From: Flaccisagitta enflata
Taxonomy: Eukaryota
Direction: 5' to 3'
Assembly (NCBI GenBank): GCA_965153355.1
Contig: OZ231126.1
Location: 40,300,001-40,364,000 of the forward strand
DNA: 64,000 nt
The position numbers and the translations under genes are program-made. Positions 9,286 to 56,162 of the stretch are shown in pieces (positions within the stretch are counted from its first letter, which is position 1; each line of letters opens with the position of its first letter). Under the pieces are notes generated by a model. The model was given only the letters and a program-made list of their open reading frames with translations, did not search any database and was not told the origin of the DNA.

Positions 9286-9426
9286 ATTATATTTGTTATC
9301 ATTGAACCACATTTTCTAGATACGTTTTGACTCGTTGGCGATATCTCACATCAGCAGATGCAGCAGTCATCCTCTCAAAGAAAACAAGGTCATGTTATTC
9401 TCTTTGTTATAACATACTGATTCAGA

Positions 9427-12400
9427 ATGACGATAAATGGATTGTTGCTGACTGATAGTTTGTTGAAAGAATGCTCATTTGCGGCAAGGCGGCTTTTGAT
9501 TAAGAACTACCGTCTGAATGAGCTGAATGTGCGGTCATTCCCAGGTAAAACCACTGACCAACTGATTGGTGGGAATGGTGAAATTCATGCTCTTATGCGT
9601 GACAAATCTTATGATTATGTTTACTTGGTTGCTGGAGCTAACGATTTTAATCGTAATGAGGATGATTGCCATGTGATGAAATGCAAAATGATTGCAAGGG
9701 TGCGCAGCAATCTTGTTCATGGGTTTTGTACCCAATACCCTTTCACAAAGCTTGTCTTGGCTCCTATCCCAATGCGTCGAATGTCCAAAAACCCAGATAT
9801 GATTCACAATCATCCAGAATGCGGTTCAAAAAACTGGATTGACACAACCAACAACGCAATATCACTCTATCAGAGTTGTTTTTCTGTCTGTGCTTGTCAC
9901 AAAGATCAGGTGAGGTCTGTCATCTCCCCCACTCTGGATCATTGGCTTCCCTATTTGACATCGGATGGGTTGCATTTGACAGATGGAACAAAGGGCCAAA
10001 CTGATGGCAAGTTAAAAATGGTTCAGTACCTCCTTAAACCCAAATCCAAATTTTCACTTTTACAGGATGATTTTCCTCCTTTGCCAGAAGCTTCAGGTTC
10101 TTTTTCATTTGAGCCACAGGTTGTCGTCCCAAAGGTGGTTCGCAGAGAAAAGCCTAATCCTAACTTGTTTATCCACCAGTGTTGCCTTGCCCAGGATGTT
10201 TCATTCAAAGGTCCCATCAAAAAGGCTTGTAAGCAAGAGTCAAAATCACCTGTTTCTTTGCCAAAATTTGCGCCCGTTCCTCGCAAAAGGCGGAAGAAGC
10301 CAAAGAAAGAAAATCAGTGGATTTTTCCCGTTTCTAATGACAAATTTTGTTTTTCCCAGTCCAATCATCTTCCGCGTGCGAAGCCCAAAATCAAACATGC
10401 GAAGAAAGTAGGGAACAAAGATCAACAGCGGGAGGAACATAGTAAGAAATGGCAGAAACAAATTCCATGGTATGAGCGTCCAGAGAACACTTGGAGTGAA
10501 CCAGAGGTACCCAGGGGAAGAGGTTTGGTTAAACAAAATTTTAGGCTAGACTCTTCTCCTTCATTAAAGCGACAACCTCATGTGAAACAGCAACCTGTAA
10601 GGAACAAGGATTTGCAGGTTAAATTGCGTCAAAAGTTATTTTTCTTTAGAAATGCACGAAGACCTCAAGTTAGGGAAAGCGCATTTATACATGATAATCT
10701 AAAGAAAAATGTCGATTCTAACATTAACTTTGATGATATTGATGGTGCTGATGATCACTGTCATAACAATGACTGGGGAGAACTAGGTGATAATTATCTA
10801 GCAATGGCTGGCCCAGAAAAGTGGAATTTTGAAAAATCAAACCCCTTGCCAAAAAAGAAGCTGTCTAAAAAACAGCTAAAGAACGCAATGAAAAAAATAA
10901 AAAAATTCTTAAATCCTATGTTGAAAAGTATGTCAGAGGAAGCAGAGAAAAATGAGGACAAAATAGTACTGACTTACAGATCAAAACATGGGTGTCTCAT
11001 AGAATTGGAAAAAAGTAACGGGAAGACTGAGACCCTAGTTGATCATTTGACTACTAAAAATGATTCCAGTCGCAACAAAAACAGGAAAAAAAATTCCCAA
11101 GGTGATGAAGATCACTCTTTGTTAGGGGGAGCAAAACAGAGATCTAAGAGTAAAGAGGCGCAAAGAAAACAAAATCAACGGGCAAGTAGAGCAAAAAATT
11201 TATCAAAAGAGGAAATTGAAGAACATCAGTCAAAAGAAAGAGCAAGGAAAAAAGAAGCATATGAAAGAAATAAAGATGAGATTTTGTCAAACAGACAAAT
11301 GCATTATGCGCAAAACAAAGATGAGATTTTATCTAATAAGCAAAAGCATTACTATCAAAACAAAGATGAGATTCTAACAAATAGGCAAATGCATTACAAT
11401 CAAAACAAAGATGAGATTCTAACAAATAGGCAAATGCATTTTAAGCAAAACAAAGATGGGATTTTATCAAACAAAAAAGCACATTATGTGCAAAACAAAG
11501 ATGGAATTTTATCAAATAAGTTAGCACATTATGAGCAAAACAAGGATGGTATTTTGTCAAACAGGCAAGCACATTATGAGCAAAACAAAGATGGTATTTT
11601 GTCTAACAGGCAAGCTTATTATGAACAATATAAAGATGGTATTTTATCAAATAAGCAAGCACATTATGAGCAGCACAAAGACGAGATTTTATCAAACAAG
11701 CAAAACCACTACAAAAGCAACCAAACAGACATTTTAAACCGGAAACGCAGCAATTACAATGACAAAAAAGGAGTATCATCTGCAAAATCAACAGCAAAAA
11801 GATATAAAGGTGCAAAAGCACATCAAAGAAAATTAAGATTGGCAAAAAATCTGAAATTAACTACTGTTAAAATGCATGATGAAAGCTACAAGGCCAATAG
11901 ACAAGACATCATTGCCAACTACCAAAATTTTTATGATCTGATCAAGTATGGGCCGGATTTTGTCTGTACATGTTGTCACCGTGGTCTGTTTGAAAATCAA
12001 GTTAAGAAATTGCCCAAAGGCTTCAATACTACAGTCAAAATTGGCAAAACAGATTATGACTGCTCAACGGACAAAATGAGTTTTGATGGAGATGAATACA
12101 TCTGTGAAACATGTTATACTAATTTGAAAAAAGGAAATATGCCCAAGTATGCGGTGGCCAATGGGAATGAATTGCCGTTTGTTCCTCCTGAAATAAAATG
12201 CTTGAATGAAGGTGAGGAAAGATGTGTTGCTCCTCGTGTGCAATTCATTCGTATGCAAAAACTTGGTTGTGATAGACAGAAGGGAATTAAGTCTAACATT
12301 GTGAATGTTCCTATTGATGTTGGGAAACTGAATTTGCAGTTACCATGTCCATCTTTAGAAAATCAGGTGCTTCAATTGCGTTTTAAGAGAAAGTTGTCGT

Positions 12401-15400
12401 ATGAGCATGACTATTTGGCCCAAAATGTTGATCTAAACAAGATCAAGGATGCTTTGAACATACTTGCTAGCTCGGAATTGTATAAGGAAGCTGGTGTTGA
12501 AATTGATGTTGAGAACTTTAAAAAGCTTGATGAAAACAAAAATGCACTTATGCAGGAATGTCTAGAAAATATGACCATCGATGATGCCTCTAATAATGAT
12601 GATGGCAATGCTGAGGTTCAGGCTGATTCTGAGAATGTTGATCAAGAGGAGGATGATGACGATGATGATGATTGGGATGAGTTGGGTGATGACTATCCCA
12701 CTAACATAGGCAATGATGATACAATGGTAATAAATGAAAGTGATGAATTGAAAGACATGATGAATGCCAGGAATGATTTGTCTGTTGCCCCGGGGGAGGG
12801 GCAAACGCCTCTTCCCCTTACTCTAGATACATTTTGTGAAGACCTGGCCTACCCAACTCTCAATGCAGGGGAAAAACCTAGAGATCACATTGTACCAATG
12901 TCCTTCAAAGACAAATGCAAAGTTCAGCTCATGCACGCTGACAATCGATACAGAATGCATCCAACCTATTTGTTTTCAATTTATCGCAAAGCCGAAACCA
13001 TACTTCATAAACAAAATATTCAAATTAGCATGAAGAAAGGTAAAAAAGTTGATGGGGCCTCAGTAACCGCCAAGGATGTTTTGGGTAATGATTTTCAAAA
13101 CATTCTTAGGCATGATGGTGGTTACAAAGTTCTTGATTCAAACCGTTGTAGCCCAGCTTATTGGCAAAAGGTAAAGGGTGAACTATTTGCAATGGTTAGA
13201 CAACTGGGAATGCCGACCTGGTTTCTCACCTTTTCTGCGGCAGAAACCTGGTGGCCAGAACTGATAAGATCCTTGAAGAAAGATTTAGATGGAACTATAT
13301 TGTCAGACAAAGAAATATATGAAATGCCGTGGATAGAAAAAGTCAAATTGATAAGAGCCAATGCAGTTTTATGTGCCCGGCAATTTAATCATCGATTTGA
13401 GGCTTTTTTAAAAACAGTTTTAAAAGAAAAATTGCATTACGATAACAATCTAGATGATTACTTTTTTCGCATTGAGTTCCAACAAAGGGGGTCACCGCAT
13501 GTCCACTTAATTATGTGGAAGCATGATGCCCCTAAGTATGGAATTCAAAGCAATGAAGAGATTTGTCAATATATAGACAAGTATGTTAAATGCTCTATAT
13601 CTTCAGAAGATAAGGAAAATGTTCCATTCCATCTACATTGTCAAATTCATAAACACACTGAATGTTGTAAAAAAAGGAATAGGAAGGAATGTAGGTTCAA
13701 ATTTCCAAGATATCCTATGGATAAGACTAGAATTATTGAACCTCATGATTGGGGACTGTATGTGAAAAAAAATTTTTCTCATCTAGATGAAGTGCAGCAA
13801 AAAGAGATAGAATCACAATTTAAAAAAGAAAACAAAGAACGTAAAGCTTGCATTTTGAAATTTCTAAATGAAATGGATCAAAATGATCCAACATTTTTTT
13901 CTATGTCATTTGAAACTTTTCTCAATACCCTAGATATGGACATTGATAAATACTGCTTGGCAATTGCATCTTTTTTGAAGCGCTCAGAAATCTTCATGAA
14001 AAGGGAGCTTAAAGATGTAAGAGTTAATAATTATAATGATGATCTCTTAAAAGCGTGGATTGGGAATATGGATATCCAATACATATTGGATCCATATTCC
14101 GTTTGTATGTATGTAATAAATTACATTGGAAAATCTTATCGCGGGATGAGTAGATTACTTAGACAAGTAGTAGCTGATTGCAAAAAGAAAAACTCATCAT
14201 TAAAAACAAAAATGACTAGAATCTGTAAAGAATTCCAGGGTGCTAGTGAGGTGTCTGCTCAAGAAGTTGCCTATGATCTTTGTCAATTACATAAAACCAA
14301 ATCAACAAGGACAAAAGTATGGATCAACACTTATCCTAAACATGAACGTGTAAAGATGTTAAAAAGCAAAGATCAATTAAAAAACATGAATGAAGACGCT
14401 GAAAATATCTTTATAGACAATTTACACACCCGATACAGTAAAAGGTCTAGGGAGGAAGAACAATTATCTTTAGTTGACTATGCATTAGGCGTGTCGGGGA
14501 GAAAAAAGGTCCTTCAATACTACCAATATTCCCCTGAGATGGATATGGAAAATTATGCTAGAGTCCTTCTAATGTTGTTTATTCCATGGAGAGATGAAGA
14601 TAAACTTTGTGGTGACTTTGAAACGCACACTGACCGTTATCTATTGTTAAAAGATTATTTAGAAAACAAAAGATCTGAGTTACATAAGATAGATGAACAA
14701 AAACTGGAAGCCTTGTCAAAAGACCCTGAAATAAACGAATTTAGTGATAATTTAGTGCCGACTTTAGACAATGATGAAAATGCGGCTGCTCTTGTTAATG
14801 AGTTGCAAAACGATGGGCCCATTGACAAAGAAAATGTTGACCTTGATTTAATTCATGAATTGGGTGAAGATTATTTTAGAAATGAAGAAGTTAAAATCAA
14901 GAAATACACATCTAGCGCTGAAGAACAAAATGCTATTTATCGCAGTTTGAACAGACGACAAAAAGAAATTTTTTATGACGTCATTAGAAGAGTGCAGCTT
15001 AACATTCCTATAAGAATTATGATCATGGGTGAAGCTGGTACGGGAAAGTCAAGATTATTGCAGGCGATGAACATGTGGGTAGATAATTTTTACTCCAGTA
15101 TAAGAAGTAATGACCCAAACTCTGCCTACTCCATAATATGCTCCTATACCGGAAACGCTGCCTTCAACTCTGGAGGTATGACTTTTCATAGTGCTTTAGG
15201 TATGAAAATAAACCAAAATCTGTCTGATGACTCAGTTTTTGGCTTGATTAGCGACAAACATTTGCAGCAATTGATAGATGCATTTGCCAACATAAGATTT
15301 TTGTGTGCTGATGAGTTCACTTACATAGGCGCCCACATGAATACAAAGATAAACAAACACTTAAAGACCATAAAACAGACAACTAGCGACTATGGCGGTC

Positions 15401-18105
15401 TCGATACTGTTTTTTTTGGAGATCCACGTCAACTTGGACCCATGTTTGATGACTGGATCTTTGAAGCGGACAAAAAACATCCTTGCGGTCCCATTGTAGG
15501 TGATATTTTGTTTAAAAGTTTTCAGAGTTTCACTTTGAATGAGATCATGCGACAAGATGATGAATCTTACATTAAAGCTCTTAACGACCTTTCAAATCCA
15601 TCATCACCTATGAGAGCCGAGAGTATAAAACTTTTTAAACAGCGAGAAATTAAGGAACAAGACATTGATTACTTGCCAAATTGTAGAGTGGATTATTTTC
15701 AAGAAAATAAGGATGTTGATCGTCACAACCTTGAAACATTGGACAAATTAGAAACTGAAAAGTATGAAGTAAATGCTAAGGTTACCTTGCTAGGTGATGC
15801 GACAAATGATGTCAAAAAGACACTTTTGAGTAAAATTAAGGAGGACAATAATCCTAAAGCAACAATGGGTTTACTTTTACATCTTCCATTGAAACTAGGC
15901 GCCAGGTATTTCATTCCAACAAATATTTGTATTAATGACGGTTTGGTTAACGGAGCAATCGGGACTCTCATGGACATAGATTTTAGCTCAAAAAATCGAC
16001 CTTTGACATTGTGGGTAAAGTTTGACAATGAAAAAGTTGGTGTTGACGCAAGGTCAAGGGTGAGGAATGGGTCTAAGTTCAAAAAACGATGCGATGATGG
16101 TTGGACACCCATTACAAAAATAACAAAACAATTCCCAACTTCTCGCATCAAGATATTTGGAATAATAAATCAGTTTCCATTGGCTCTAGGCTATTCATTC
16201 ACTATTGCAAAATGCCAGGGAAATAATAACATAGGTATTCACACTGTAATTCATTTGAACAAGAAGGCTCTCTCAAGGAGAGAGCAGTATGTAGCCTTTT
16301 CGAGAAGTGATAAGCTGGAAAATTTACATATTGTTGGTAATTTTACAGACCCATGGTTTAAAGAAGAGGAACGCAGAAAGAAGAAATTTCCTCAATTAAT
16401 CACAGAGGACAGAGTGTGTAATGCATTTAAAGAACTTGAAAAGAAAGAAGTAGAATTAATTTGGAAGCCATTATACAAATTTCCTAATGAATCACTAAAA
16501 TTAGTTTTCCACAATGTGAACAGTTTAATGCCTCATTTGGAAGACATCAAAATGGACTACAGTACTATGGCTGCAGATGTATGCTTTTTTTTAGACAACC
16601 GGTCAAAACCTAGTGATAATGTTTTCCTAAACAATTTTGTCATAAAAGATCAAATACTTATGGAAACAGAACTTAGGGTTCCTGGAGGCATTCTAATCTT
16701 GGTTAAGCCACACATTAATATTAAGATAATCAAAAAGGTTCAAGAAAAAGCGAATGACTATTATGGACTTGCATTAACATGCATGATAGATGATACAATT
16801 ATCGTTGCGGTATATTTCAGCCCAAAATGCCCTTTGAGTTACATAAAAACATGCATTAACAAGGCCTTAGAGGGTTCTGAAGGATTTCCAAGGATAATGA
16901 TAGGAGGGGATTTTAATCAGAAGAACGATGTACAATTTTTGATTGATATTGGTTTTAAAAATTTTGTGACACTTCCAACAACTAAATGGCTAACAAAAAT
17001 AGACCATTTGTATGCCAATTTTGATAAAGAGATTTTAACATGGGTTAATCCTAGCTACTTTTCTGACCACCATAGCATTATCACAATCATAGGGGATGAC
17101 AACTCTGTTCATTTGGAAAATGTTGCGCCCAAATTTGATGAATGTATGAAAGAAGTTGATAAAAGTGTTCTTTCTGAAAATGTTGTGCCCAATTCAGATG
17201 AATGTATGGATGTTGATGTTACCATAGAAAAATCTTTGACTGATATAAGTAAAGGTAATTTCCATAGATTGAAAAATTCATGGAACACTTGCTGGCTTAA
17301 CAGTATATTTCAAGCTTTGTGGGCAATATTAGCAACAGATACTGAGTTTTCTTTATCATCAACTACTGATATTGCAAGTGTCATTTTTAATTGGATTTTT
17401 GATAAATCTAAAAAGATTCCTCAAACATTTGATCTGTACAAAGAGAAAATCTCAGATCTATCACTTAAAAAAACATTCTTAATGTCGATTGGGAAATTCA
17501 ATGAGCTACAAATGAAGAGCCAAGAAGATGCTGTTGAGGCAATTCAGGAATTCATTAATCAATGTGATAGTTTAATGCCACTACGACATTCTCAGATGGA
17601 AATTTATTACTGTCCTACATGCGGATCTGAGCAAACCACATGTTTGCAGGAAACAATCCTAACAATCCCAATTCAGTCCAAATTTATCAATGGAGGAAAA
17701 TTTGATTTTGGCAGTGCAGTGTTGAGTCTTTTTGGTCAATATGAAAATTCTGAAAAAGTCTGTAATGACCCATCATGTCGCTTTCAGTGTCAAAAGAAAT
17801 CAATGCTAGTCGGAAAACCAAGATATCTTATGATAAATCTAAATAGAGCAGGTCCAAATAATAAAAAAATTCATACTGCTTGTATCATTTCTAGCAACTT
17901 GACAATCAACACTACAGAGGGACCTACTCATTTTGAACTTATTTCTGTCGTGAAACATATTGGGCCAAGTTCTAATTCTGGACATTACATATGTTACAGA
18001 AAATCGGAAGAAGGTTGGTTTGAAATTAATGACGATTCAATCAGAATTATTAACATTTCAACTATGGAAACCGCAAATCTTTTTATATATAAGGAAAAAA
18101 AATGA
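9427..18105 (+). CDS. Helentron/Helitron2 RepHel polyprotein, 2892 aa: SGNH hydrolase, 15-aa repeats, Zn-binding region, HUH Rep, Pif1 helicase, APE-like endonuclease, USP/peptidase C19
   Basis: Rep motifs PTWFLTFS (aa 1263), EFQQRGSPHVH (1350-1360, with the Ser typical of Helentron/Helitron2), YVINYIGK (1562-1569). Pif1 motifs GEAGTGKS (1868), ADEF, GDPRQL, MRQ, DGLVNG, QFPL, YVAFSR. APE motifs HNVNSL, VY.SP, GDFN, IDH, SDH. SGNH blocks TDS, PG, GAND, DGLH. USP Cys box NTCWLNS..Q and His box GHY..W..INDD. Confidence 0.95.
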   Translation: MTINGLLLTDSLLKECSFAARRLLIKNYRLNELNVRSFPGKTTDQLIGGNGEIHALMRDKSYDYVYLVAGANDFNRNEDDCHVMKCKMIARVRSNLVHGFCTQYPFTKLVLAPIPMRRMSKNPDMIHNHPECGSKNWIDTTNNAISLYQSCFSVCACHKDQVRSVISPTLDHWLPYLTSDGLHLTDGTKGQTDGKLKMVQYLLKPKSKFSLLQDDFPPLPEASGSFSFEPQVVVPKVVRREKPNPNLFIHQCCLAQDVSFKGPIKKACKQESKSPVSLPKFAPVPRKRRKKPKKENQWIFPVSNDKFCFSQSNHLPRAKPKIKHAKKVGNKDQQREEHSKKWQKQIPWYERPENTWSEPEVPRGRGLVKQNFRLDSSPSLKRQPHVKQQPVRNKDLQVKLRQKLFFFRNARRPQVRESAFIHDNLKKNVDSNINFDDIDGADDHCHNNDWGELGDNYLAMAGPEKWNFEKSNPLPKKKLSKKQLKNAMKKIKKFLNPMLKSMSEEAEKNEDKIVLTYRSKHGCLIELEKSNGKTETLVDHLTTKNDSSRNKNRKKNSQGDEDHSLLGGAKQRSKSKEAQRKQNQRASRAKNLSKEEIEEHQSKERARKKEAYERNKDEILSNRQMHYAQNKDEILSNKQKHYYQNKDEILTNRQMHYNQNKDEILTNRQMHFKQNKDGILSNKKAHYVQNKDGILSNKLAHYEQNKDGILSNRQAHYEQNKDGILSNRQAYYEQYKDGILSNKQAHYEQHKDEILSNKQNHYKSNQTDILNRKRSNYNDKKGVSSAKSTAKRYKGAKAHQRKLRLAKNLKLTTVKMHDESYKANRQDIIANYQNFYDLIKYGPDFVCTCCHRGLFENQVKKLPKGFNTTVKIGKTDYDCSTDKMSFDGDEYICETCYTNLKKGNMPKYAVANGNELPFVPPEIKCLNEGEERCVAPRVQFIRMQKLGCDRQKGIKSNIVNVPIDVGKLNLQLPCPSLENQVLQLRFKRKLSYEHDYLAQNVDLNKIKDALNILASSELYKEAGVEIDVENFKKLDENKNALMQECLENMTIDDASNNDDGNAEVQADSENVDQEEDDDDDDDWDELGDDYPTNIGNDDTMVINESDELKDMMNARNDLSVAPGEGQTPLPLTLDTFCEDLAYPTLNAGEKPRDHIVPMSFKDKCKVQLMHADNRYRMHPTYLFSIYRKAETILHKQNIQISMKKGKKVDGASVTAKDVLGNDFQNILRHDGGYKVLDSNRCSPAYWQKVKGELFAMVRQLGMPTWFLTFSAAETWWPELIRSLKKDLDGTILSDKEIYEMPWIEKVKLIRANAVLCARQFNHRFEAFLKTVLKEKLHYDNNLDDYFFRIEFQQRGSPHVHLIMWKHDAPKYGIQSNEEICQYIDKYVKCSISSEDKENVPFHLHCQIHKHTECCKKRNRKECRFKFPRYPMDKTRIIEPHDWGLYVKKNFSHLDEVQQKEIESQFKKENKERKACILKFLNEMDQNDPTFFSMSFETFLNTLDMDIDKYCLAIASFLKRSEIFMKRELKDVRVNNYNDDLLKAWIGNMDIQYILDPYSVCMYVINYIGKSYRGMSRLLRQVVADCKKKNSSLKTKMTRICKEFQGASEVSAQEVAYDLCQLHKTKSTRTKVWINTYPKHERVKMLKSKDQLKNMNEDAENIFIDNLHTRYSKRSREEEQLSLVDYALGVSGRKKVLQYYQYSPEMDMENYARVLLMLFIPWRDEDKLCGDFETHTDRYLLLKDYLENKRSELHKIDEQKLEALSKDPEINEFSDNLVPTLDNDENAAALVNELQNDGPIDKENVDLDLIHELGEDYFRNEEVKIKKYTSSAEEQNAIYRSLNRRQKEIFYDVIRRVQLNIPIRIMIMGEAGTGKSRLLQAMNMWVDNFYSSIRSNDPNSAYSIICSYTGNAAFNSGGMTFHSALGMKINQNLSDDSVFGLISDKHLQQLIDAFANIRFLCADEFTYIGAHMNTKINKHLKTIKQTTSDYGGLDTVFFGDPRQLGPMFDDWIFEADKKHPCGPIVGDILFKSFQSFTLNEIMRQDDESYIKALNDLSNPSSPMRAESIKLFKQREIKEQDIDYLPNCRVDYFQENKDVDRHNLETLDKLETEKYEVNAKVTLLGDATNDVKKTLLSKIKEDNNPKATMGLLLHLPLKLGARYFIPTNICINDGLVNGAIGTLMDIDFSSKNRPLTLWVKFDNEKVGVDARSRVRNGSKFKKRCDDGWTPITKITKQFPTSRIKIFGIINQFPLALGYSFTIAKCQGNNNIGIHTVIHLNKKALSRREQYVAFSRSDKLENLHIVGNFTDPWFKEEERRKKKFPQLITEDRVCNAFKELEKKEVELIWKPLYKFPNESLKLVFHNVNSLMPHLEDIKMDYSTMAADVCFFLDNRSKPSDNVFLNNFVIKDQILMETELRVPGGILILVKPHINIKIIKKVQEKANDYYGLALTCMIDDTIIVAVYFSPKCPLSYIKTCINKALEGSEGFPRIMIGGDFNQKNDVQFLIDIGFKNFVTLPTTKWLTKIDHLYANFDKEILTWVNPSYFSDHHSIITIIGDDNSVHLENVAPKFDECMKEVDKSVLSENVVPNSDECMDVDVTIEKSLTDISKGNFHRLKNSWNTCWLNSIFQALWAILATDTEFSLSSTTDIASVIFNWIFDKSKKIPQTFDLYKEKISDLSLKKTFLMSIGKFNELQMKSQEDAVEAIQEFINQCDSLMPLRHSQMEIYYCPTCGSEQTTCLQETILTIPIQSKFINGGKFDFGSAVLSLFGQYENSEKVCNDPSCRFQCQKKSMLVGKPRYLMINLNRAGPNNKKIHTACIISSNLTINTTEGPTHFELISVVKHIGPSSNSGHYICYRKSEEGWFEINDDSIRIINISTMETANLFIYKEKK
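11269..11763 (+). repeat. Coding 45-bp tandem repeat, ~11 x NKD(E/G)ILSN(R/K)QxHYxQ
   Basis: Visible in translation, aa ~615-779. Confidence 0.9.
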
Positions 18106-19344
18106 GTGTATGGATTTTCTAATCATGTGTGATTTATTCATGCCATTTATTTAAACATTTTATCCATATATTTATTCTTATTATCAAAGACACAAATCAA
18201 TGGTTTCAACAAAAAAATAGCCAACAGCTGACTATCCGTAATTGGGTAGTGAATTTATTCATGCTATTTGTTCATGCCATTTATTCATCTGGTTTATTCA
18301 TGCAATTTATTCATGAACTCATTCTTGTTGATATTAAGGATGTAAAAGCGGTCGATTTTAGTGCCGCTCCCACTGCTTACGCTTCTACTTCCTCTTCCAT
18401 TTTGTAGTTAAAATACTAGTAGCTATCCCATCCTCCAAAATGGAAGTGGTCAATCGCTTCCACATCCTTAGTTGATACCAAAAAAATGAGGCTAACGGCT
18501 GGCTATCCATTAATCAATTTGATTGAGTACTTATGTTTGATTGAGCATTAGAAAGAAAAGCCTCTTGAATGGGTTAGGGGTGTCAATGGTAAGGATGGCC
18601 ATTCACATCGATTCCTTTCCTTTAAGGCGTGCTAAAATGATTTAATACAGTACTTGAGCATTGGTAGTATAAAAAACGTATGTAAATGGTTTTTTTCACT
18701 GTACTTAGTGACAAAAGTGATTTTTTTACTACTCATGCCCCTGTACTTTATTGAGCATTTGGTACACTTAATTGGATAAAAGTAACGCGCGGAGCAGCAT
18801 CTACCTCCTGGGTCGCGTGGAAACGGCTGCACTAATCAGTTCACATGTGAGCTAATTAGTGCAGCCATTCCAGATGATTTTAAGCTATATTTCAGAGCTA
18901 TGAAAAACGCAAATTTGTGGACAAAGATGAGGAAGTAAAGATGGCGAATAAAGATTGAGTGGTCTAGCCCAAAGAAACCGCAAAAATGTGTAAATTCTAC
19001 AGCAAGTCATTCTGGTGGTGAAACATGCAGCTGAAAGAAGATGGTGGTGAACACAGAATCAGAAGAAAACCAATGGCCAATAAGCCAATGGGCCAATAAG
19101 CAAGGCTGACACCTTTCAGTCGCGTGCAGTTTTTAAGACCATCAGACCAAAAGACAGATATATTGAAGACCAGGAGACCAAAAGACTAACAGGCAAAATG
19201 AAAATGGACTTAAATCAACTTTGAATAACTTAGAATGACTTAAAATGACTTAAAATGGTGTAAAACAACGAAAATAAGCTTAGGGCTATTGACAGTCGGA
19301 CCAACGGACTGACCAACAGACCATCGGAGTGAGTTGTAGAGTAA

Positions 19345-19895
19345 GAAGAAAGTTGGTGATGCATCTGAAGAGTTGGTGATTAATCAGAAGAGTCGCTGAT
19401 CTATGGAAGAGTTGCTGATCTATGGAGGAGTCGCTGATATACAGAAGAGTTGCTGATATACGGAAGAGTTGCTGATCTACAAAAGAGTCGCTGATCTATG
19501 GAAGCGTCGCTGATCTACGGAAGAGTCGCTGATCTACGGAAGAGTCGCTGATCTACGGAAGAGTTGCTGATCTATGGACGAGTCACTGATTTATGGAAGA
19601 GACGCTGATTTAAGGAAGAGACGCTGATGTACGAAAGAGACGCTGATATAACGAAAAGACGTTGATTTATGGAAGAGTCGCTGATCTACAGAAGAGTTGC
19701 TGATCTATGGAAGAGTTGCTGATCTACAGAAGAGTCGCAAATGTACGGAAGAGATGCTGATCTGCAAAAGAGACGTTGATGTACCAAAGAGACGCTAATA
19801 TATGGAAGAGACGTTGATATACGGAAAAGACACTGATTAAGGGAGAGATGCTGATATACAGAAGAGACGTTGATATGTGGAAGAGACGCTGATAC
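19345..19895. repeat. 19-bp tandem repeat (GAAGAGTCGCTGATCTACG), about 29 units
   Basis: Contiguous diverged units, no spacers. Confidence 0.9.
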
Positions 19896-20229
19896 ATTTG
19901 ACCAAAGGCAACAAAGGTTCTAAAAGAGGAAACGCATTACATTTGATATGATTCTCTGTGAGTGACATTTCTTGAAATCATTGTTAATAAATGTAGTTGA
20001 AAAAAATATCATTTCTTGCTCCTTGTTACTGACATAAATATCTGCTCTTCATGGCTTATATCAAAGGGGGAAAGGGATGTAGGACTGAGCTTTTAAGTGG
20101 AAAGGTTTGAACTGAAAATAGGGTTTTCCAGCTGGTTAGGAATTCATTTATGCAATTTATTCATGGAATAAGAGCTTTGGGGTTAGGGGAGATAAAGAGC
20201 ATGAGAAATAATTGTGATTATATGGGACT

Positions 20230-22489
20230 AGAATGAACAAGCCGATGATCTACGCCATGTTGTGATTTGAGCCACAAAGCTCAGATTTGAGCCAAGAGAT
20301 TGGAATCTGAGTTTTTGATTGGGATTTAAGCCACAAGATTGGGATTTGAGCCTTCAGCCTGAGATTTGAGCTTGGGGTTGGAATTTGAACCTAAGGCCTG
20401 AGGCTGTGATTTGAGCCTTTAGGAGAAGGATGAGGAAGAGAAGGAAGGTAAGAAAGCAGATTTGGGATCAGAATGAAAGGTCACCAGGCCTCAGAGGGGC
20501 CAATGACCTATGCCAGGTTGTAATTCGAGCCATGGGGCTGTTATTTGAGCCCTGAGGCTAGGATATGAGCTATGAGGCTGAGATTTGAGCAACAAGGCTA
20601 GGATGAGCCTTGAAGCTGATATTTGAACCAAAAGGCTGGGATTTGGACCAAGATATTGAAATATGAGCCTTAAGGCTAGGATTCAACTCATAAGGTTTGG
20701 CTTTAAGAATGAGACTAGGATGTGAGCCACAAGGCTGGAATTTAAAGCTAAGATCTACGAGGTCAGCAGGCCCTGAAGGAACCGATGACCTATGCTAGGC
20801 TGTAATTTGAGTCACAAGGCTGGGATTTGAGCCAAAAGATTGAAATATGAATTATGAAGCTGGGAATTAAGCATAAGATTGGGATTTGAGCTCTTAGCCT
20901 GGGATTCAAGCTTGAGACAGTGATTTGGACTTGAGGCTCTGATTTGAGCTTCGAAGCCAGGAGGCGGAGGATGGAAAAGGAGGAGGAGGAGGAGGAGGAG
21001 AAGAAGGAGGAGGGGGGATTTGAGAGGTCAGCAGGCCCCGAAGGGACTGATGACCTATGCTAGGCTGTTATTTGAGTCATAAGGCTGGGATTTGAGCTTC
21101 GAAGCCAGGAGGCGGAGGATGGAAAAGGAGGAGGAGGAGGAGAAGAAGGAGGAGGGGGGATTTGAGAGGTCAGCAGGCCCCGAAGGAACCGATGACCTAT
21201 GCTAGGCTGTAATTTGAGTCATAAGGCTGGGATTAGAGCCAAAAGATTGGAATGTGAGCAATGAAGCTGGGATTTAAGCCATAAGGTTGGAATTTGAGCC
21301 CTGAGCCTGGGTTTCAAGCTCAAGACTGTGATTGGGGCTTGAGGCTGCAATTTGAGCTTTGAAGCTGGGGGGGGGGGAATGGAAAAGGAGGAGGAGGAGA
21401 AGAAGGAAGAGGGGGGACTTGAGAGGTCAGCAGGCCCCGAAGGACCCGATGACCTATGCTAGGCTGTAATTTGAGTCATAAGGCTGGGATTTAAGCCAAA
21501 AGATTGGAATATGAGCGATGAAGCTGGGATTTAAGCCATAAGGTTGGAATTTGAGCCCTGAGCCTGGGATTCAAGCTCGAGACTGTGATTTGGGCTTGAG
21601 GCTGCGATTTGAGCTTCGAAGCCGGGGGAGGGGGGGACGGAGAAGGAGAAGAAGGAGGAGAAGAAGGAAGAGGGGGGATTTGAGAGGTCAGCAGGCCCCG
21701 AAGGACCCGATGACCTATGCTAGGCTGTAATTTGAGTCATAAGGCTGGGATTTGAGCCAAAAGATTGGAATATGAGCGATGAAGCTGGGATTTAAGCCAT
21801 AAGGTTGGAATTTGAGCCCTGAGCCTGGGATTCAAGCTCGAGACTGTGATTGGGGCTTGAGGCTGCAATTTGAGCTTTGAAGCTGGGGGGGGGGGAATGG
21901 AAAAGGAGGAGGAGGAGGAGAAGAAGGAAGAGGGGGGATTTGAGAGGTCAGCAGGCCCCGAAGGACCCGATGACCTATGCTAGGCTGTGATTTGAGTCAT
22001 AAGGCTGGGATTTGAGCCAAAAGATTGGAATATGAGCGATGAAGCTGGGATTTAAGCCATAAGGTTGGAATTTGAGCCCTGAGCCTGGGATTCAAGCTCG
22101 AGACTGTGATTTGGGCTTGAGGCTGCAATTTGAGCTTCGAAGCCGGAGAAGAAGGAGGAGAAGAAGGAAGAGGGGGGATTTGAGAGGTCAGCAGGCCCCG
22201 AAGGACCCGATGACCTATGCTAGGCTGTAATTTGAGTCATAAGGCTGGGATTTGAGCCAAAAGATTGGAATATGAGCGATGAAGCTGGGATTTAAGCCAT
22301 AAGGTTGGAATTTGAGCCCTGAGCCTGGGATTCAAGCTCGAGACTGTGATTTGGGCTTGAGGCTGCGATTTGAGCTTCGAAGCCGGGGGGGGGGGACGGA
22401 GAAGGAGAAGAAGGAGGAGAAGAAGGAGGAGGAGAAAATTTCTCCCTGTGTGAAAGCATAGGTCATCGGCCCCTTCGGGGCCGCTGCCC
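20230..22489 (-). repeat. Tandem array of ~240-bp units built from the family-B terminus
   Basis: Unit marker AGGTCAGCAGGCCCCGAAGGACCCGATGACCTATGC near 20480, 20760, 21025, 21167, 21424, 21685, 21945, 22185; more degenerate leftwards. Confidence 0.85.
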
Positions 22490-38728: not shown

Positions 38729-40265
38729 TTGGCAGCGGCCCTGAAGGGGCCGATGACCTATGCTTTCATACAGGGGAAATTTCTCCTCCTCCTCCTCCTC
38801 CTTCTCCTCCTCTGTACCCCCCCTTCCAAGGCCTAAATCCTAGCCTGGAGGCTCAAATCCCAGCCTGGAGGCTCAAATCCTAGCCTCAAGGCTCAAATCC
38901 TAGCCTCAAGGCTCAAATACCAGCCTCGAGGCTCAAATCCCAGCCTTGAGGCTCAAATCCCAGCCTTGAGGTTCAAATCCCAGCCTCAAGGTTCAAATCC
39001 CAGCCTCGAGGCTCTAATCCCAGCTCTATGCTCAAATTCTAGCCTTGAGGCTCAAATCCAAGCCTTGAGACTCAAATCCCAGCCTCGAGGCTCAAATTCC
39101 AGCCTCAAGGCTCTAATCCAAGCCTCAAGGCTCAAATACCAGCCTCGAGGCTCAAATCCCAGCCTTGAGGCTCAAATCCCAGCCTCGAGGCTCAAATTCC
39201 AGCCTCAAGGCTCTAATCCGAGCCTCAAGGCTCAAATACCAGCCTCGAGGCTCAAATCCCAGCCTGGAGGCTCAAATCCCAGCCTTGAGGTTCAAATCCC
39301 AGCCTCAAGGTTCAAATCCCAGCCTCGAGGCTCTAATCCCAGCTCTATGCTCAAATTCTAGCCTTGAGGCTCAAATCCAAGCCTTGAGACACAAATCCCA
39401 GCCTCGAGGCTCAAATTCCAGCCTCAAGGCTCTAATCCGAGCCTTGAGGCTTAAATCCGAGCCTTCAGGCTCAAATCCCAGCCTCTTGGCTCAAATCCCA
39501 GCCTCCAGGCTCCAATCCAAGCTATCATGCTCAAATCCCAGACTCCAGGCTCAAAAAAAATCAGCATAGGTCATCGGCCCCTTTGGGGCCGCTGCCCCAC
39601 TCACCACCTCACTCGTCCATCAGAGGTGAGCAGAGCAAAATCTATCTAATGATTTATCTGTCTAAATGAGCGAAGCTAATTTTAGGAGAGAAATGATTTC
39701 CAAGAAAGATTTTAATCAGACTACAGCAAATTCGAAATCAACGCAGGGAGAGAGAATATTTGTGACCGATAAAAAGAGAGAGAGAGAGCAAATCATAATA
39801 AAGTGGAAAATAACCAAAATTATATGAGAAATGACCGATAAAATGAGAGAATGGCCAATGGCGCCATTCTTCTCTCGGCCTACAGCTACCTATCATGACT
39901 AAAATTTTTTCAAAAATTTTACTCAGATACAAAAATAACTCAGACCCCTGTATCAGAAAGAGAACTTGCTAAAAAGAAAATTCGTAAAAACTTAAGTAAG
40001 AAAAAGAACAAATTTAAAAGAGAAAAAAAAAATGTGGAAAAATTGCGGTGTGCAATGCGATTGAAAAACCACATACATGAAAATTAGCAAACGAAATAAG
40101 CAATGAATTCCACGCATCCAAAATACCAGGCATTGTGAGACACGCAATACAAGAAAATGACAAATGACAACTCGATAAATTCAAAATGCATATTTACAAG
40201 GCCAAAATTTCGCTCAAATTGAGGTAAAATATGTTTCTCTCACACATGGACCATCTAACGCTTTT
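38727..40265 (+). mobile_element. HINE family B copy with expanded 20-bp repeats, 3' end interrupted by ~630 bp of unrelated AT-rich DNA
   Basis: 5' subTIR at 38731, 3' subTIR at ~39564-39597, terminal GACCATCTAACGCTTTT resumes at ~40249. Confidence 0.65.
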
Positions 40266-40695
40266 AGGCCCTTTAAGGCCCTTTCAGGCCCTTTAAGGCC
40301 CTTTAAGGCCCTTTAAGGCCCTTTAAGACCCTTTAAGGCTGTTTAAGGCCCTTTAAGGCCCTTTAAGGCCCTTTAGAGCCCTTCAAGGCCCTTTAAAGCC
40401 CTTTAAGGCCCTTCAAGGCCCTTTAAGGCCCTTTAAGGCCCTTTAAGGCCCTTTAAGGAAGGCCCTTTAAGGAAGGCCCTTTAAGGAAGGCCCTTTAAGG
40501 CCCTTTAAGGCCCTTTAAAGCCCTTTAAGACCCTTTAAGGCCCTTTAAGGCCCTTTAAGGCCCTTTAAGGCCCTTTTAGACCCTTTAAGGCCCTTTAAGG
40601 CCCTTTAAGGCCCTTTAAGGCCCTTTAAAGCCTTTTAAGACCCTTTAAGGCCCTTTAAGGCCCTTTAAGGCCCTTTAAGGCCCTTTAAGGCCCTT
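40266..40695 (+). repeat. TAAGGCCCTT satellite
   Basis: Direct inspection. Confidence 0.95.
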
Positions 40696-42752
40696 TTGGG
40701 CAGCGGCCCCGAAGGGGCCGATGACCTATGCTTTCACACATAGGGGAAATTTCTCCTCCTCCGTCCGTCCCCCCCTTGAGGCTCAAACCCCAGCCCCAAG
40801 GCTCAAATCCCAGCCTTAAGGCTCAAATCCCAGCCTTGAGGCTCAAATCCCAGCCTTGAGGCTCAAACCCCAGCCTCTAGGCTCATATCCCAGCCTCGAG
40901 GCTCAAATCCCAGCCTTGAGGCTCAAATCCCAGCCTCAAGGCTCAAATCCCAGCCATGAGGCTCAAATCCCAGCCTTGAGGTTCAAATCTCAGCCTCGAG
41001 GCTCAAATTCCAGCCTTGAGGCTCAAATTCCAGCCTTGAGGCTCAAATCCCAGCCTTGAGGCTCAAATCCCAGCCTTGAGGCTCAAATCCCAGCCTTGAG
41101 GATCCAATCCCAGCCTCAAGGCTCAAATTTTGGCCTTTAGGCTCAAAACCTGGCCCCAAGGCTCAAATTCCGGCCTCGAGGCTCAAATCCCGGCCTCGAG
41201 GATCAAATCCCGGCCTCGAGGCTCAAATCCCAGCATCTTGGCTCAAATCACAGCTTGGAGGCTCAAATCACAGCCTTGAGACTTAAATCCATGATTGATG
41301 CTCAATTCAAGCCTAGAGCCTCAAAACCTACTAAGCATAGGTCATCGGCCCCTTCAGGGCCGCTGCCCCTCTCACCACCACACATCAACATATACTCACA
41401 AAGGGGCAACGGGTACCGCTGACCATCTAACGCTTTTGCGACTATTCCTCTTCTCTCTTCTCTTTCCTCTTCTCTTTTTGGGCAGCGGCCCCGAAGGGGA
41501 CGAAGTCCTGTAGAACACAGGGGGACTTTCGTTCGTCCGTTAGTTCGTTCGTTCGTCCCCCCACATCAGGATCCTCCGACCTCAAATCTGGCCTCTAAGA
41601 CCTCAAATCTGGCCTCTCAGACCCCAAATCTGGCCTCTCAGACCCCTAATCTGGCCTCTCAGACCCCAAATCCGGCCTCTCAGGCCTCAAATCAAGCCTC
41701 TCAGACCTCAAAACCGGCCTCTCAGGCCTCAAATCCAACCTCTCAGGTCTCAGACCTGGCCTCTCAGGCCTCAAATTAGGCTTCTTAGGCCTCAAATCCA
41801 AATCCTAAGGTCTCAAACCTGGCCGCTCAGGCCTCAAACTAGGCCTCTCAGGCCTCAAATCAGCTATCTAAGCCTCAATTCATTGCCCTCAGGCTTCAAA
41901 TCAGTCCTCTGACCTTTCAAGCCTTAATCCAGCTCTCTTAAGCCTTGAGTCTGCCCTGCCATCTTCCAGCAGCCTTCTTAGACCTCAGTTTAGGCTCTAT
42001 AGAAGGCCTTCAGTTAGCCCTCTATCGCATCTCATCCACTTCTGCAGGCAGGACGAACGCAAGTCCCCCTGTGTTCTACAGGACTTCGTCCCCTTCGGGG
42101 CCGCTGCCCTGCTTCCCCTCACTCCAATTCACAATCACTCAAAGCAGGGCAACGGGTATCGCTGACCACATATTGCCCTTGGGTGACCTGTTTTTTCTCC
42201 CTTTTGGGCAGCGGCCCCGGAGGGGCCGATGACCTATAATTCCACATAGGGCAATTTTCTCCGGTTTCCGTACGTCCCCCCCTCAAAGCCTCAAAATAGG
42301 CTTCCCAGACTGCAAATGAAGCCCTTTTGACCCCAAAAAAGGCCTCTTAGACCTCAAATCAGACCTTTCAGACCTCAAATCAGCCCTTTCTTGCCCCAGA
42401 TCAGGCCTCTAAGACCCCAAATCAGGCCTTTCAGACCCCAAATTAGACCCCTCAGACCCAAAATCAGGCCTTTCAGACCCCAAATTAAGCCTTTCAGACC
42501 TTAAACCACGCCTCTCAGACCCTGAATCAGACCTTTCAGACCCAAAATCAAGCCCTCCAAACCAGTTTCTCAAACTGGAGAAAATTGTCCAGGCCCTCCA
42601 AACCAGCTTGTCAAGCTGGAGAAAATTGCCCTATGTGGAATTATAGGTCATCGGCCCCTCCGGGGCCGCTGCCCCTCTCATAATCTCAATCCTACATACA
42701 TTAACTTAGGGGCATCGGGTACCGCTGACCATGTAACGCTTTTGCGACTATT
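40694..42752 (+). mobile_element. Three different HINE subfamilies in tandem (40694-41446, 41476-42192, 42203-42752)
   Basis: Each starts TTTTGGGCAGCGGCCCC, has a matching inverted subTIR and ends in a hairpin + TT. Confidence 0.85.
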
Positions 42753-44959: not shown

Positions 44960-47811
<2,852 letters not shown>

Positions 47812-47941
47812 GATGGAGTTTGTTAAACAATTGAAGTGTTAAAAGTCCAAGTGTTAAAAGTCCAACGAAGAAATGGGAGGGGAGAAGTAAATGAAATTTT
47901 ACTAGAGAATCAGGGCTAAATGGAGGAGAACGGGCGAGGAT

Positions 47942-47998
<57 letters not shown>

Positions 47999-48428
47999 TG
48001 TGTGTGTGTGTGAGAGAGAAACAAACGCGAAGTGCGGAAAAGTGGACAGCGTGCAAGAAAGAACCCTTAGAGTCAAAGAAAGCGATAAAAGACTTAAAAG
48101 AGGGTTAGAAGAAGAGGACAGAAAGACCTGTCAAGATAAACTCGCAAAATAAATGATTTCAATGTTAGCCGTTAAAATGTACTACTAAATTGTCAGGCCC
48201 TCATCCGTCAAATTTGTGTGAGGCGAAGAGAGAGAGAAAGCTAGATAGGATTAACAACGTAAATTTGTTGTGATTTAAGTGTAGACTGTCTGCCGCCTTT
48301 CAATTGACATCAAATCGAGATCAACTTTTAAAATTCTTTTCGATTTCGATTTCGGATTCTCTTTCTCTCGCTCTTTTTCTCCCCCTCTTCCTCATAACGG
48401 AGAACGTTGAGAACGATATTGTCGCACC

Positions 48429-48496
<68 letters not shown>

Positions 48497-48653
48497 AAGG
48501 GCTATTTAAGGAGGGATGGAATGGGAGGAAGCCAGTCTCAGTTTCAGTCTCAGTCTCATGGTGATTCCAATCTTCTCAACTCTTCCATCGAGAAGACATT
48601 ATTTCGTAAGCCCAAAAAGAAGCCAATCTCGCTCAAAATCCCCGGATTTTAAG

Positions 48654-48660
48654 TATAAAA
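48654..48660 (+). promoter_or_regulatory. Candidate TATA box
   Basis: TATAAAA about 45-50 nt upstream of the ATG at 48705, which has an A-rich context (CAAAATGG). Confidence 0.4.
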
Positions 48661-48704
48661 AAGCTATTGATTTAAAAAAATTTAAAAACAAAAACAAAAA
48701 CAAA

Positions 48705-51131: not shown

Positions 51132-51269
51132 AATTTTTGTTTTGATTCTTTCTGTGTACATATGTAAATATTAAATTGACGATATTGATTGCTCAATGAT
51201 ATATGGTCCTGATTATTTTTGTTTTACTAACAGGTTTGTTTACTCGATGAAGAATTTGAAAAGTTTAAG

Positions 51270-52079
51270 ATGACTGTTATTAGTAAACTGAAAGCTAAAT
51301 GTGGGTGTGTTTTGATTCCTGCCTGTCAAGTCCATAAGCTGACTTACAAACAGATTGTTGATGCGCAAAATGCGTGTCCTATTCATGCAAAGGGTAAAGG
51401 AGGAGGTGGTGGTGGTGGTGGTTATCAGCACGTTCACCCTCCAGGCCAGCATCAACAACATCAACATCAACAACAGCAACCGTCATTGGATGTACCTGTC
51501 GCTTCCACTTCTTCAGCATCCGATGCCCCTGTCAACGCAGTCGCCGTTGTTCCCCCCACCGCCGCTGTTAGCGCCACCAACACCCCCAGCACCTTTGCTG
51601 GCGTCCTCGCTGCCGCCGCAGCCGCCGAGGCCGCCGCCTCTAACAACGTGGTGGCCGCGGATACCGTCGCCGTTCTAACTGCCGCCGCCGAAGCCTACAC
51701 CGCCGCCGAAGCCGCCGCTGCCGCCGAAGCCGCCGCCGCCGCCGAAGCCATTGCGGTTAACGCCAGTGATAATCTGTCCCTGATAGTCACTCCTACCGCC
51801 GGCGTTGAGGACGATTTGGCGTCGAGAACTGACTTGCCGCAGCTGGGGAATATTAGCCACCTGTTGGGTGATGATGAAAATGATTTTCAAATCATCCATT
51901 TGATGACGCCCGTTCGTAACTCAGACGATGATGCGACAAATCAAACTGAAATTTCTGCGCTCATGTCACCGGCCACATTTCAACACCTTAATCAATCATT
52001 ACGCTCACCACCTAACAGCGACGATGATGATCAAGACAACAGCAACAACAACAACAACAGCAACAACAACAACAAAAGC

Positions 52080-52159
<80 letters not shown>

Positions 52160-55055: not shown

Positions 55056-55085
55056 CGCAAGTCACGCACTGAAAGCTGTGATGCT

Positions 55086-55464
55086 GTGATTCGAAATCGG
55101 CGGTTAATTCCATCTGAGTCTTCTAACAATAACAGTAAAAAACGAAAACAATCACTTTCCCTTAAATCTTTAGAACCCCCAAGTAAAAAATGTAAAATTG
55201 ATAAAATTAAAAAAAATAGAAAAAGAAAAAGAGAATCAAGGGCTAAAACTTGGGCGGAAATCAGAGAATCAAGGGCTAAAACTTGGGCGGAAATCAATTT
55301 TGAAGATCAAAAGAAAACAGTCAAATGTCCCAAATGTTTTGAAAAAATGATTATGTCACGTTTGTGCCATCACTTGCAAATGGCCTGTCCTAGAAATAAG
55401 AGGGGTCAACAATTCATGGCTGGGGGAAATAAAAGTACCGATGATCGTGATAATGATGACAATG

Positions 55465-55499
<35 letters not shown>

Positions 55500-55534
55500 A
55501 ACAACAATGACATTATTATTCCAAACCATAAAAC

Positions 55535-55627
<93 letters not shown>

Positions 55628-55629
55628 GG

Positions 55630-55695
<66 letters not shown>

Positions 55696-55719
55696 ACAAC
55701 AACAATAACAACAACAACG

Positions 55720-55804
<85 letters not shown>

Positions 55805-56162
55805 CGATGACAACAACAATGACAACAACAACGATGACAACAACAACAACGATGACAACAACAATGACGACATTCACATTCATGTAAAAAGACGACAGTC
55901 ATTTCGTGGCTTGTTAGAGACTTTTACATTGACCAATCCGCAAATCTCCAGAGATTTCCATCATTATTGGGGTAGAATACGAAGAGAATTAAAAATCATT
56001 ATTGAACGAGAATTAAGGAAACATCCAGGCTTAAAATGTCAAATAGGTTTGAGTGTTGTCTTTAGGAAATTAACAGACGCCTTTATTCCCACGTTCGATA
56101 ATGATGGGAATCCGTTGCTTTTCCAATATACCTTTGCGCGTGTGTTAACAAGATGTTTTTGA
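55086..56162 (+). pseudogene. Truncated ORF resembling the N-terminal region of Polinton/Maverick pPolB proteins, with a C2HC finger and poly-Asn
   Basis: CPKC..HLQMAC; after the (AAC)n tract, SFRGLLETFTLTN..DF..I..ELKIIIERELRKHPGLKCQIGLSVVFRK, recalled as similar to the segment preceding Polinton polymerase domains. Same frame as ORF 53505..55055. No exonuclease or polymerase motifs follow. Confidence 0.45.

Follow-up and report, generated by a model that had tools for sequence, protein, structure and literature searches.

The analysed window, a stretch of 64,000 nucleotides (nt) from Flaccisagitta enflata (assembly GCA_965153355.1, contig OZ231126.1, positions 40,300,001 to 40,364,000 of the forward strand), contains a transposase gene whose product ends in a ubiquitin-specific protease (USP, peptidase C19) domain. 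The domains follow one another in the order SGNH-like hydrolase, Lys-rich repeats, DUF6570, HUH Rep, PIF1 helicase, endonuclease of the endonuclease/exonuclease/phosphatase (EEP) type (EN), variable linker and USP. Because the Rep, PIF1, DUF6570 and EN domains share a single open reading frame (ORF), the gene is assigned to the Helentron-type Helitron-like elements of group HLE2, and 9421–18105 is the sole ORF of an apparently intact autonomous rolling-circle transposon of this type. The predicted proteins of its relatives begin at the same Met (9427). In window coordinates, the features are as follows.

9421..18105, + strand: single stop-free frame, the Helentron/HLE2 polyprotein; 2894 codons plus a TGA stop, first ATG at 9427
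9427..10050, + strand: N-terminal SGNH/GDSL-like hydrolase domain; motifs TDS, GAND and DGLH, read by eye
11198..11782, + strand: in-frame 45-nt (15-residue) tandem repeats in a Lys-rich low-complexity stretch, from a repeat search
12130..12519, + strand: DUF6570 (Pfam E 4e-14, 53.6 bits, cut-off 24.3; residues 904–1033)
12925..13512, + strand: Rep (HUH), Helitron_like_N (Pfam E 8e-26; residues 1169–1364), with HVH and Y..Y seen
14947..15567, + strand: PIF1-like helicase core with Walker A GEAGTGKS (Pfam E 1.6e-16; residues 1843–2049)
16483..17088, + strand: EEP/APE-type endonuclease, from alignment, AlphaFold2 (AF2) and Foldseek
17089..17265, + strand: variable EN-USP linker, holding a 60-nt duplication at 17086–17205
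17266..18102, + strand: USP (peptidase C19) catalytic domain of 279 residues, from Pfam, phmmer against the PDB, AF2 and Foldseek
17275..17277, + strand: Asn codon, five residues upstream of the Cys, from the USP21 alignment
17290..17292, + strand: catalytic Cys codon, aligned to NTC of USP21
17611..17778, + strand: four Cys of the fingers zinc ribbon, CPTC ... C-NDPS-C (codons at 17611, 17620, 17761 and 17776)
17983..17985, + strand: catalytic His codon in GHY, from the USP21 alignment
18031..18033, + strand: third triad residue, Asp of INDD, aligned to ND of USP21

A USP domain within the transposase frame

An earlier note, made from the letters of the window, had read 17266–18102 as a complete USP catalytic domain with canonical boxes, fused to a Helitron-like transposase. 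The frame-1 translation contains every motif that it quoted, in the form RLKNSWNTCWLNSIFQALW, SQEDAVE, YYCPTCGSEQ, VCNDPSCRFQC, RYLMINLNR, VVKHIGPSSNSGHYICY, GWFEINDDSI and NLFIYKEKK, with the stop codon at 18103–18105 directly after the last of these. The domain is in frame with Rep and helicase, and 9421–18105 is free of internal stops, so that the proposed fusion stands. When the USP part is excised, Pfam PF00443 (UCH) matches it with 88.3 bits (cut-off 23.9; E 8.2e-25) over profile positions 3–254 of 254. Against PDB sequences, phmmer gives 23 distinct matches at E ≤ 1e-3, all of them USP/Ubp enzymes, the best being USP21 (4e-7). In the phmmer alignment the Cys box LKNSWNTCWLNS pairs with LRNLGNTCFLNA of USP21, NTC to NTC, GHY pairs with GHY, and ND with ND. 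The roles given here to residues of the Cys box follow the USP literature; the Asn before the Cys presumably occupies the oxyanion-hole position, as in USP7 and USP21. Counted from the first Met at 9427, the residues named in the earlier note are C2622, H2853 and N2868; counted from 9421, the first codon past the upstream stop, the same positions are C2624, H2855 and N2870/D2871.

The fold agrees with the motifs. An AF2 model built from an 18-row alignment (A1) has a mean pLDDT of 91.7 and a pTM of 0.89, and among the Foldseek PDB matches listed, the top ones are all USPs (USP35, USP46, USP2, USP21 and USP30; E ~1e-18, TM-score TMq 0.77–0.78), including USP-ubiquitin complexes (TMq 0.78). Among viral models, compact giant-virus USPs fit best (TMq 0.81), and the fit of coronavirus papain-like proteases is much poorer (TMq ~0.5). 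The segment 17266–18102 is thus confirmed as a compact but complete peptidase C19/USP domain with an intact predicted catalytic set. As a side observation, ranks 43 and 46 of the viral (BFVD) fold matches to the USP model are proteins of a Faunusvirus (922 aa) and a Hokovirus (813 aa) annotated as endonuclease/exonuclease/phosphatase family; a pairing of EEP and USP domains may also exist in those giant-virus proteins.

In Pfam the EN region gives sub-threshold matches only, at 16–22 bits, and the relative P0055 carries its Exo_endo_phos region in the collinear place. The motifs GDxN, IDH and SDH are invariant in the 7 aligned rows of a second alignment (A2). Its AF2 model, of moderate confidence (pLDDT 71.8), retrieves EEP enzymes at E 3e-9 to 1e-7, LINE-1 EN being the best (E 3e-9), with TDP2 and AP endonuclease also present. 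The appearance of TDP2, a 5'-tyrosyl-DNA phosphodiesterase, beside LINE-1 EN among these structural neighbours is suggestive, as it would fit an enzyme paired with a 5'-phosphotyrosyl-forming Rep; it may reflect just the common EEP fold.

At the other end of the polyprotein, Lipase_GDSL_2 matches the excised N-terminal domain at E 1.6e-5 and 25.9 bits, under its cut-off of 32.9, and the domain is 53–94% identical in relatives P0161–P0167, which share the start Met of the window. The Lys-rich stretch contains at least nine in-register copies of the 45-nt unit, encoding a NKDEILSNRQMHY.Q-like 15-residue repeat. Neither the SGNH part nor the EN part drew useful matches from PDB sequences, Pfam found nothing meaningful in 10111–12120, 13561–14940 or 15568–16380, and Pfam scans of the whole protein and of excised pieces detected neither an OTU nor a VTD domain. 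In the HELIANO survey of Helitron-like elements, DUF6570 serves as a marker of HLE2, and SGNH/GDSL is not among the accessory domains named in its main text (Li et al., NAR 2024, PMC11417382; cited throughout from its accessible text).

Relatives, conservation and ancestry

A HMMER search with the USP part against 1.84 billion representative proteins returned 750 matches at E ≤ 1e-3, 24 of them at ≤ 1e-10, and a word-indexed search found 11 close relatives on short contigs, 59–96% identical. The long fused relatives P0186, P0196 and P0174 surfaced only among cluster members, and the USP region searched against proteins of 1591–5065 aa gave no match at E ≤ 1e-3. With the remainder of the polyprotein as query, phmmer against the matched proteins recovered P0154–P0157 only, the distant relatives requiring blastp, by which helicase or EN sequence was found in 10 of 158 USP-matching proteins. 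Of the others, most are either short fragments or resemble host USPs, tandem multi-USP proteins among them.

In-frame EN-USP or helicase-USP arrangements recur in relatives across 23–96% identity. In P0154–P0157 the EN continues into the USP in one frame. P0186 (1921 aa) is a single-frame Rep-PIF1-EN-USP protein with 57% identity to window residues 979–2891, and P0055 and P0174 have the order PIF1-Exo_endo_phos-UCH, P0055 aligning collinearly to the window protein (26% identity). P0118 and P0196 consist of a Rep-helicase (RepHel) part followed by a USP, with no EN detected. Two further HLE-linked USP proteins carry additional modules: P0024 has an EN, then two tandem USP-like domains and a PHD-like match, and in P0032 the USP is preceded by a Macro domain (E 5e-30), with a weak link to a helicase (Pif1_2B at 19.3 bits, under cut-off).

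Identity to the window, segment by segment, is as follows.

Rep: 75% to P0186; not covered by P0154–P0157
PIF1: 74% to P0186; not covered by P0154–P0157
EN: 67–86% to P0154–P0157; 47% to P0186
Linker: 9–47% to P0154–P0157; 18% to P0186
USP: 60–86% to P0154–P0157; 40% to P0186

The linker decays and the USP stays, which argues for a maintained module rather than a passively captured exon. The earlier note had made its claim depend on the catalytic triad being conserved among related elements, and every relative covering these positions keeps them: Asn and Cys in 5/5 close and 9/9 long relatives, His and Asp in 9/9 close and 8/8 long ones. All four zinc-ribbon Cys are kept in every covering close relative; in distant relatives three are kept in 9/9, and the fourth aligns to T, A or S in 4/9 (a CxxC versus CxxxxC register). 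From such alignments, the USP appears to be a long-maintained C-terminal module of this transposase lineage.

Helitron-like elements are known to capture pieces of host genes (PMC11417382), and the USP, less conserved than RepHel, could on that account be a host gene fragment carried passively and without a role for the element. This is contradicted by a complete in-frame domain with no stop, by the same position in relatives down to 23–29% identity, by catalytic residues kept in all covering rows beside a linker that has decayed, and by the grouping of the HLE-linked USPs in a supported clade. We regard passive capture as very improbable.

That clade was obtained from a quick LG+G4 tree of 81 near-complete domains, taken from 159 proteins matched by our own USP hidden Markov model (HMM); the other 78, including P0157, P0024 and P0003, covered the domain incompletely and were left out. 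Seventeen rows form a clade (SH-aLRT 98) that unites the window with nine of the ten rows labelled HLE-linked, among them the weakly linked P0032. A tree joining all 18 rows is not rejected by the approximately unbiased (AU) test (p-AU 0.952), and its likelihood lies 53.9 log units above that of the quick search. Together these are compatible with one old acquisition of the USP within HLE2, which they do not prove. Where the earlier note had proposed an independent capture of another deubiquitinase (DUB) fold, an old acquisition of a non-OTU domain fits the clade and the AU result; the capture is not seen here for the first time, UCH having already been recorded in HLE2 (PMC11417382).

Known systems and a probable role

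In its accessible text, the HELIANO survey includes UCH in a list of 20 domains "stably included" in Helitron-like elements, almost exclusively in HLE2, with enrichment in subgroups c and d, chiefly from lungfish and axolotl, subgroup b being the one enriched in EN and Herpes_teg_N; the presence of UCH in HLE2 is taken as a sign of common origin (PMC11417382). Only DUF6570, Herpes_Helicase, Herpes_teg_N and UvrD_C_2 are described there as sharing the RepHel ORF, the remaining domains lying in separate ORFs, and the same text contains no analysis of UCH catalytic residues, structure or activity. The window resembles the UCH-bearing HLE2 elements of that survey in having RepHel with DUF6570 and a UCH/USP domain downstream of RepHel. 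It differs from them in that the USP shares the RepHel frame, as it also does in P0186, P0055/P0174, P0118 and P0196, and follows an EN seen by Pfam only below threshold. Beyond the HELIANO paper and preprint, a literature search that did not extend to subscription journals, Repbase Reports or supplements returned no paper linking USP or UCH to Helitron-like elements. A USP in Helentron/HLE2 elements has therefore been catalogued since 2024, and the window is not new in kind; what is particular to it is the USP in the transposase ORF, a co-occurring EN barely detected by Pfam, and the N-terminal SGNH-like domain. It shows that a USP can share the RepHel ORF and adjoin the EN, and current views are not overturned.

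Deubiquitination by Helentrons has a biochemical precedent. VTD domains of Helentrons are active deubiquitinases and deNEDDylases that cut K48, K63 and K11 chains, and in the authors' view helitrons gain from DUB activity provided by different DUB classes, with no mention of USP in helitrons in the accessible text of their paper (Erven et al., Nat Commun 2022, PMC9741609). As in the window, the zebrafish VTD domains DrT1 and DrT2 are cysteine DUB domains within a Helentron RepHel-EN polyprotein; they have shown activity on ubiquitin and NEDD8 and are proposed to protect transposition proteins (PMC9741609). Their fold is that of a peptidase C76-like VTD, in contrast to the C19 USP of the window. 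EN-carrying rolling-circle transposons that bear OTU likewise have an accessory papain-like protease or DUB domain. OTU belongs to another family and lies upstream of RepHel (PMC11417382), whereas the USP of the window stands at the extreme C-terminus. The distinction that the earlier note drew between this domain and the OTU classically described in Helentrons is borne out, the domain being a USP. To call it a second deubiquitinase fold, as that note did, falls short, since with VTD already known (PMC9741609) USP is at least the third DUB type after OTU. With OTU, VTD and USP, three DUB families occur in Helentron-type transposases, and ubiquitin removal can be argued to be a recurrent need. 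Among these three, to our knowledge, VTD alone has been tested biochemically in Helentrons.

Outside transposons, the closest comparisons are with cellular and viral USPs. The cellular catalytic cores (USP21, USP2, USP46/12, USP35 and USP30) share with the window the fingers-palm-thumb fold, the Cys and His boxes and the zinc ribbon. The window domain is 16–21% identical to them and shorter (279 residues versus roughly 300–340 in the matched chains), its second zinc pair is spaced CxxxxC, and, unlike a host regulator, it is built into a transposase. Compact giant-virus USPs, such as that of Pithovirus LCPAC404 (273 aa), are of similar minimal size and fit its structure best overall (TMq 0.81, TMt 0.83); they are 21% identical to the window and are stand-alone viral genes.

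Taken together, we consider it probable that the window holds an intact HLE2 element whose maintained USP would act as an isopeptidase for the transposase, for proteins of the transposition intermediate, or for both. Most likely, it would strip ubiquitin or a ubiquitin-like modifier from these proteins, and through deubiquitination a very large protein, rich in lysine and linked to DNA, would last longer where it would otherwise go to the proteasome. The deubiquitinase role is proposed because of the analogy with the Helentron VTD domains, and we infer that the domain would be catalytically active, would take ubiquitin as its substrate and would serve self-protection. Being intact, compact, confidently modelled and part of an apparently intact polyprotein, this USP is a convenient object on which such a role can be tested.

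A narrower form of this proposal, essentially that of the earlier note, is that the EN-USP pair shields the intermediate in which Rep is bound to DNA by a covalent 5'-phosphotyrosyl link. To the host this adduct would be a DNA-protein crosslink, to be tagged with ubiquitin and so removed by proteolysis; the USP, being tethered, would take the tag off in cis for as long as strand transfer is under way. The earlier note had also named the countering of silencing as a conceivable purpose. If this were so, the USP, like OTU and VTD elsewhere, would be a convergent anti-repair device of HUH transposons; we hold it to be an unlikely possibility.

The modifier itself could be another one. A USP active on a ubiquitin-like protein (NEDD8, ISG15, SUMO or Fubi) might, for example, blunt cullin-based or interferon-like restriction, and its structural neighbours include USP18 (ISG15) and USP36 (Fubi), while Helentron VTD domains also cleave NEDD8 (PMC9741609). 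Most members of the USP family, and the best structural matches of this one, are nevertheless ubiquitin enzymes, and a preference of this kind seems rather unlikely. A different use of the same chemistry would be cis-processing, in which the USP would be mainly a protease cutting the 2892-residue polyprotein at LxGG-type sites, with deubiquitination secondary. The coronavirus papain-like protease (PLpro), which has a USP fold, cuts polyproteins in such a manner, and PLpro regions are among the fold matches (E 1e-7 to 1e-9, TMq ~0.5). The long multi-enzyme chain has disordered linkers, and LIGG occurs at residues ~46–49 and LLGG at ~585–588. The former sits within the folded SGNH domain, however, the stretch around the latter is covered by no relative, and the EN-USP linker contains no LxGG. 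Cellular and giant-virus USPs also match far better than PLpro, and Pfam scans of the protein detected no ubiquitin-like domain, so that processing as the main role is improbable.

Several observations weigh against the reading of an intact element with a maintained, working USP isopeptidase, and they are set out here with the copy and expression data that they qualify. EN and USP (47% and 40% identity to P0186) evolve faster than Rep and helicase (74–75%), a sign of weaker constraint, and P0055 lies outside the HLE-linked clade in the quick tree. An hmmscan of the entire 2894-residue protein does not report UCH among its 10 families. Likewise, the full-length Pfam scan of P0196 (2650 residues) leaves UCH unreported, although our own USP HMM places the USP at 2355–2645. 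These misses are taken as a putative filter artefact of very long proteins rich in low-complexity sequence. Pfam scans of long whole ORFs can miss a USP, and published surveys of Helitron-like elements may under-count it. Searches for inverted and direct repeats, together with self-BLAST of the flanks (with one copy in the window), found no 5'/3' pairing of element ends, which in Helentrons comprise a T-T insertion site, an asymmetric terminal inverted repeat and a 3' hairpin; the termini not having been found, mobility of the window copy is unproven.

The copy data concern a family that is repeated and diverged. DNA run X1 accounts for 84% of the sampled window words, with lower proportions in marine metagenome runs. 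Over 11800–19280, X1 yields 11459 contig pieces at 90–100% likeness in all 30 bins (605 at ≥99%, 2694 at 95–99% and 8160 at 90–95%), with the USP bins covered like the rest, and X2 yields 5625, but contig depth, taken here without a single-copy control, does not measure copy number. Of the 40 differences listed, 36 fall in the ORF, and for 24 of these the changed base is the third of its codon (binomial p 4e-5). Considered one by one, 24 leave the residue unchanged and 12 are non-synonymous; the USP part has four differing codons, of which three still encode the same residue. As 40 of 336 differences were listed, this synonymous excess describes a selected subset. Expression of the USP finds little in its favour: in the polyA RNA run X11, of which ~6% was read (12.16 million records), five partial reads fall at 12550–12799 and none on the USP. 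The sole RNA-library piece on the USP, a 292-nt metatranscriptome contig (X7; 17761–18050, 6 differences), could be DNA carry-over and is not proof of transcription.

These same data bear on whether the locus might be a host gene domesticated from a Helentron and no longer mobile. The single copy in the window and the termini not being identified would agree with this; so would the lack of polyA RNA reads on the USP in the one sampled run, which does not discriminate between the readings. The thousands of contig pieces at 90–99% likeness that span the whole ORF in X1 and X2, the many diverged relatives in assemblies, and the intact appearance of every enzymatic domain all speak for a mobile family, and we judge domestication the least credible of the explanations considered.

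Flanking repeats and other features of the window

Downstream of the stop codon lies one further annotated feature.

18106..20200, + strand: 3' non-coding flank of the element, from repeat and palindrome searches

It contains 13-nt TTTATTCATG-type repeats at 18133–18315 and 20143–20165, and a 19-nt tandem array at 19292–19899. Two palindromes follow the stop, one at 18391–18449 with a 17-nt stem and a 25-nt loop, and a near-perfect one at 18822–18869 (24+24 nt); both are candidate Helentron 3' hairpins.

The contig depth of X1 in this flank is uneven. Over 18550–19049 it is ~1200–1900, similar to the ORF; it leaps to ~6e5 at 18300–18549 and ~1.9e6 at 19050–19280, compared with ~1e3–1e4 over the ORF, and X2 has the same pattern. 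The two segments are hyper-abundant short repeats and may be non-autonomous derivatives or satellites. One X1 contig omits 18217–18393.

Elsewhere in the window, five long open frames of 368–873 aa lie on both strands of 46016–56162 and seem unrelated to the element; none has a Pfam family at E ≤ 0.01 except for one weak Vir1p match. Satellite-like arrays occur at 20230–22400, at 38800–41300 (in opposite orientation) and at ~1680–1980. These arrays delimit the stretch downstream of the element and are built of ~20-nt GAGCC...GGGATTT units within ~260-nt units.

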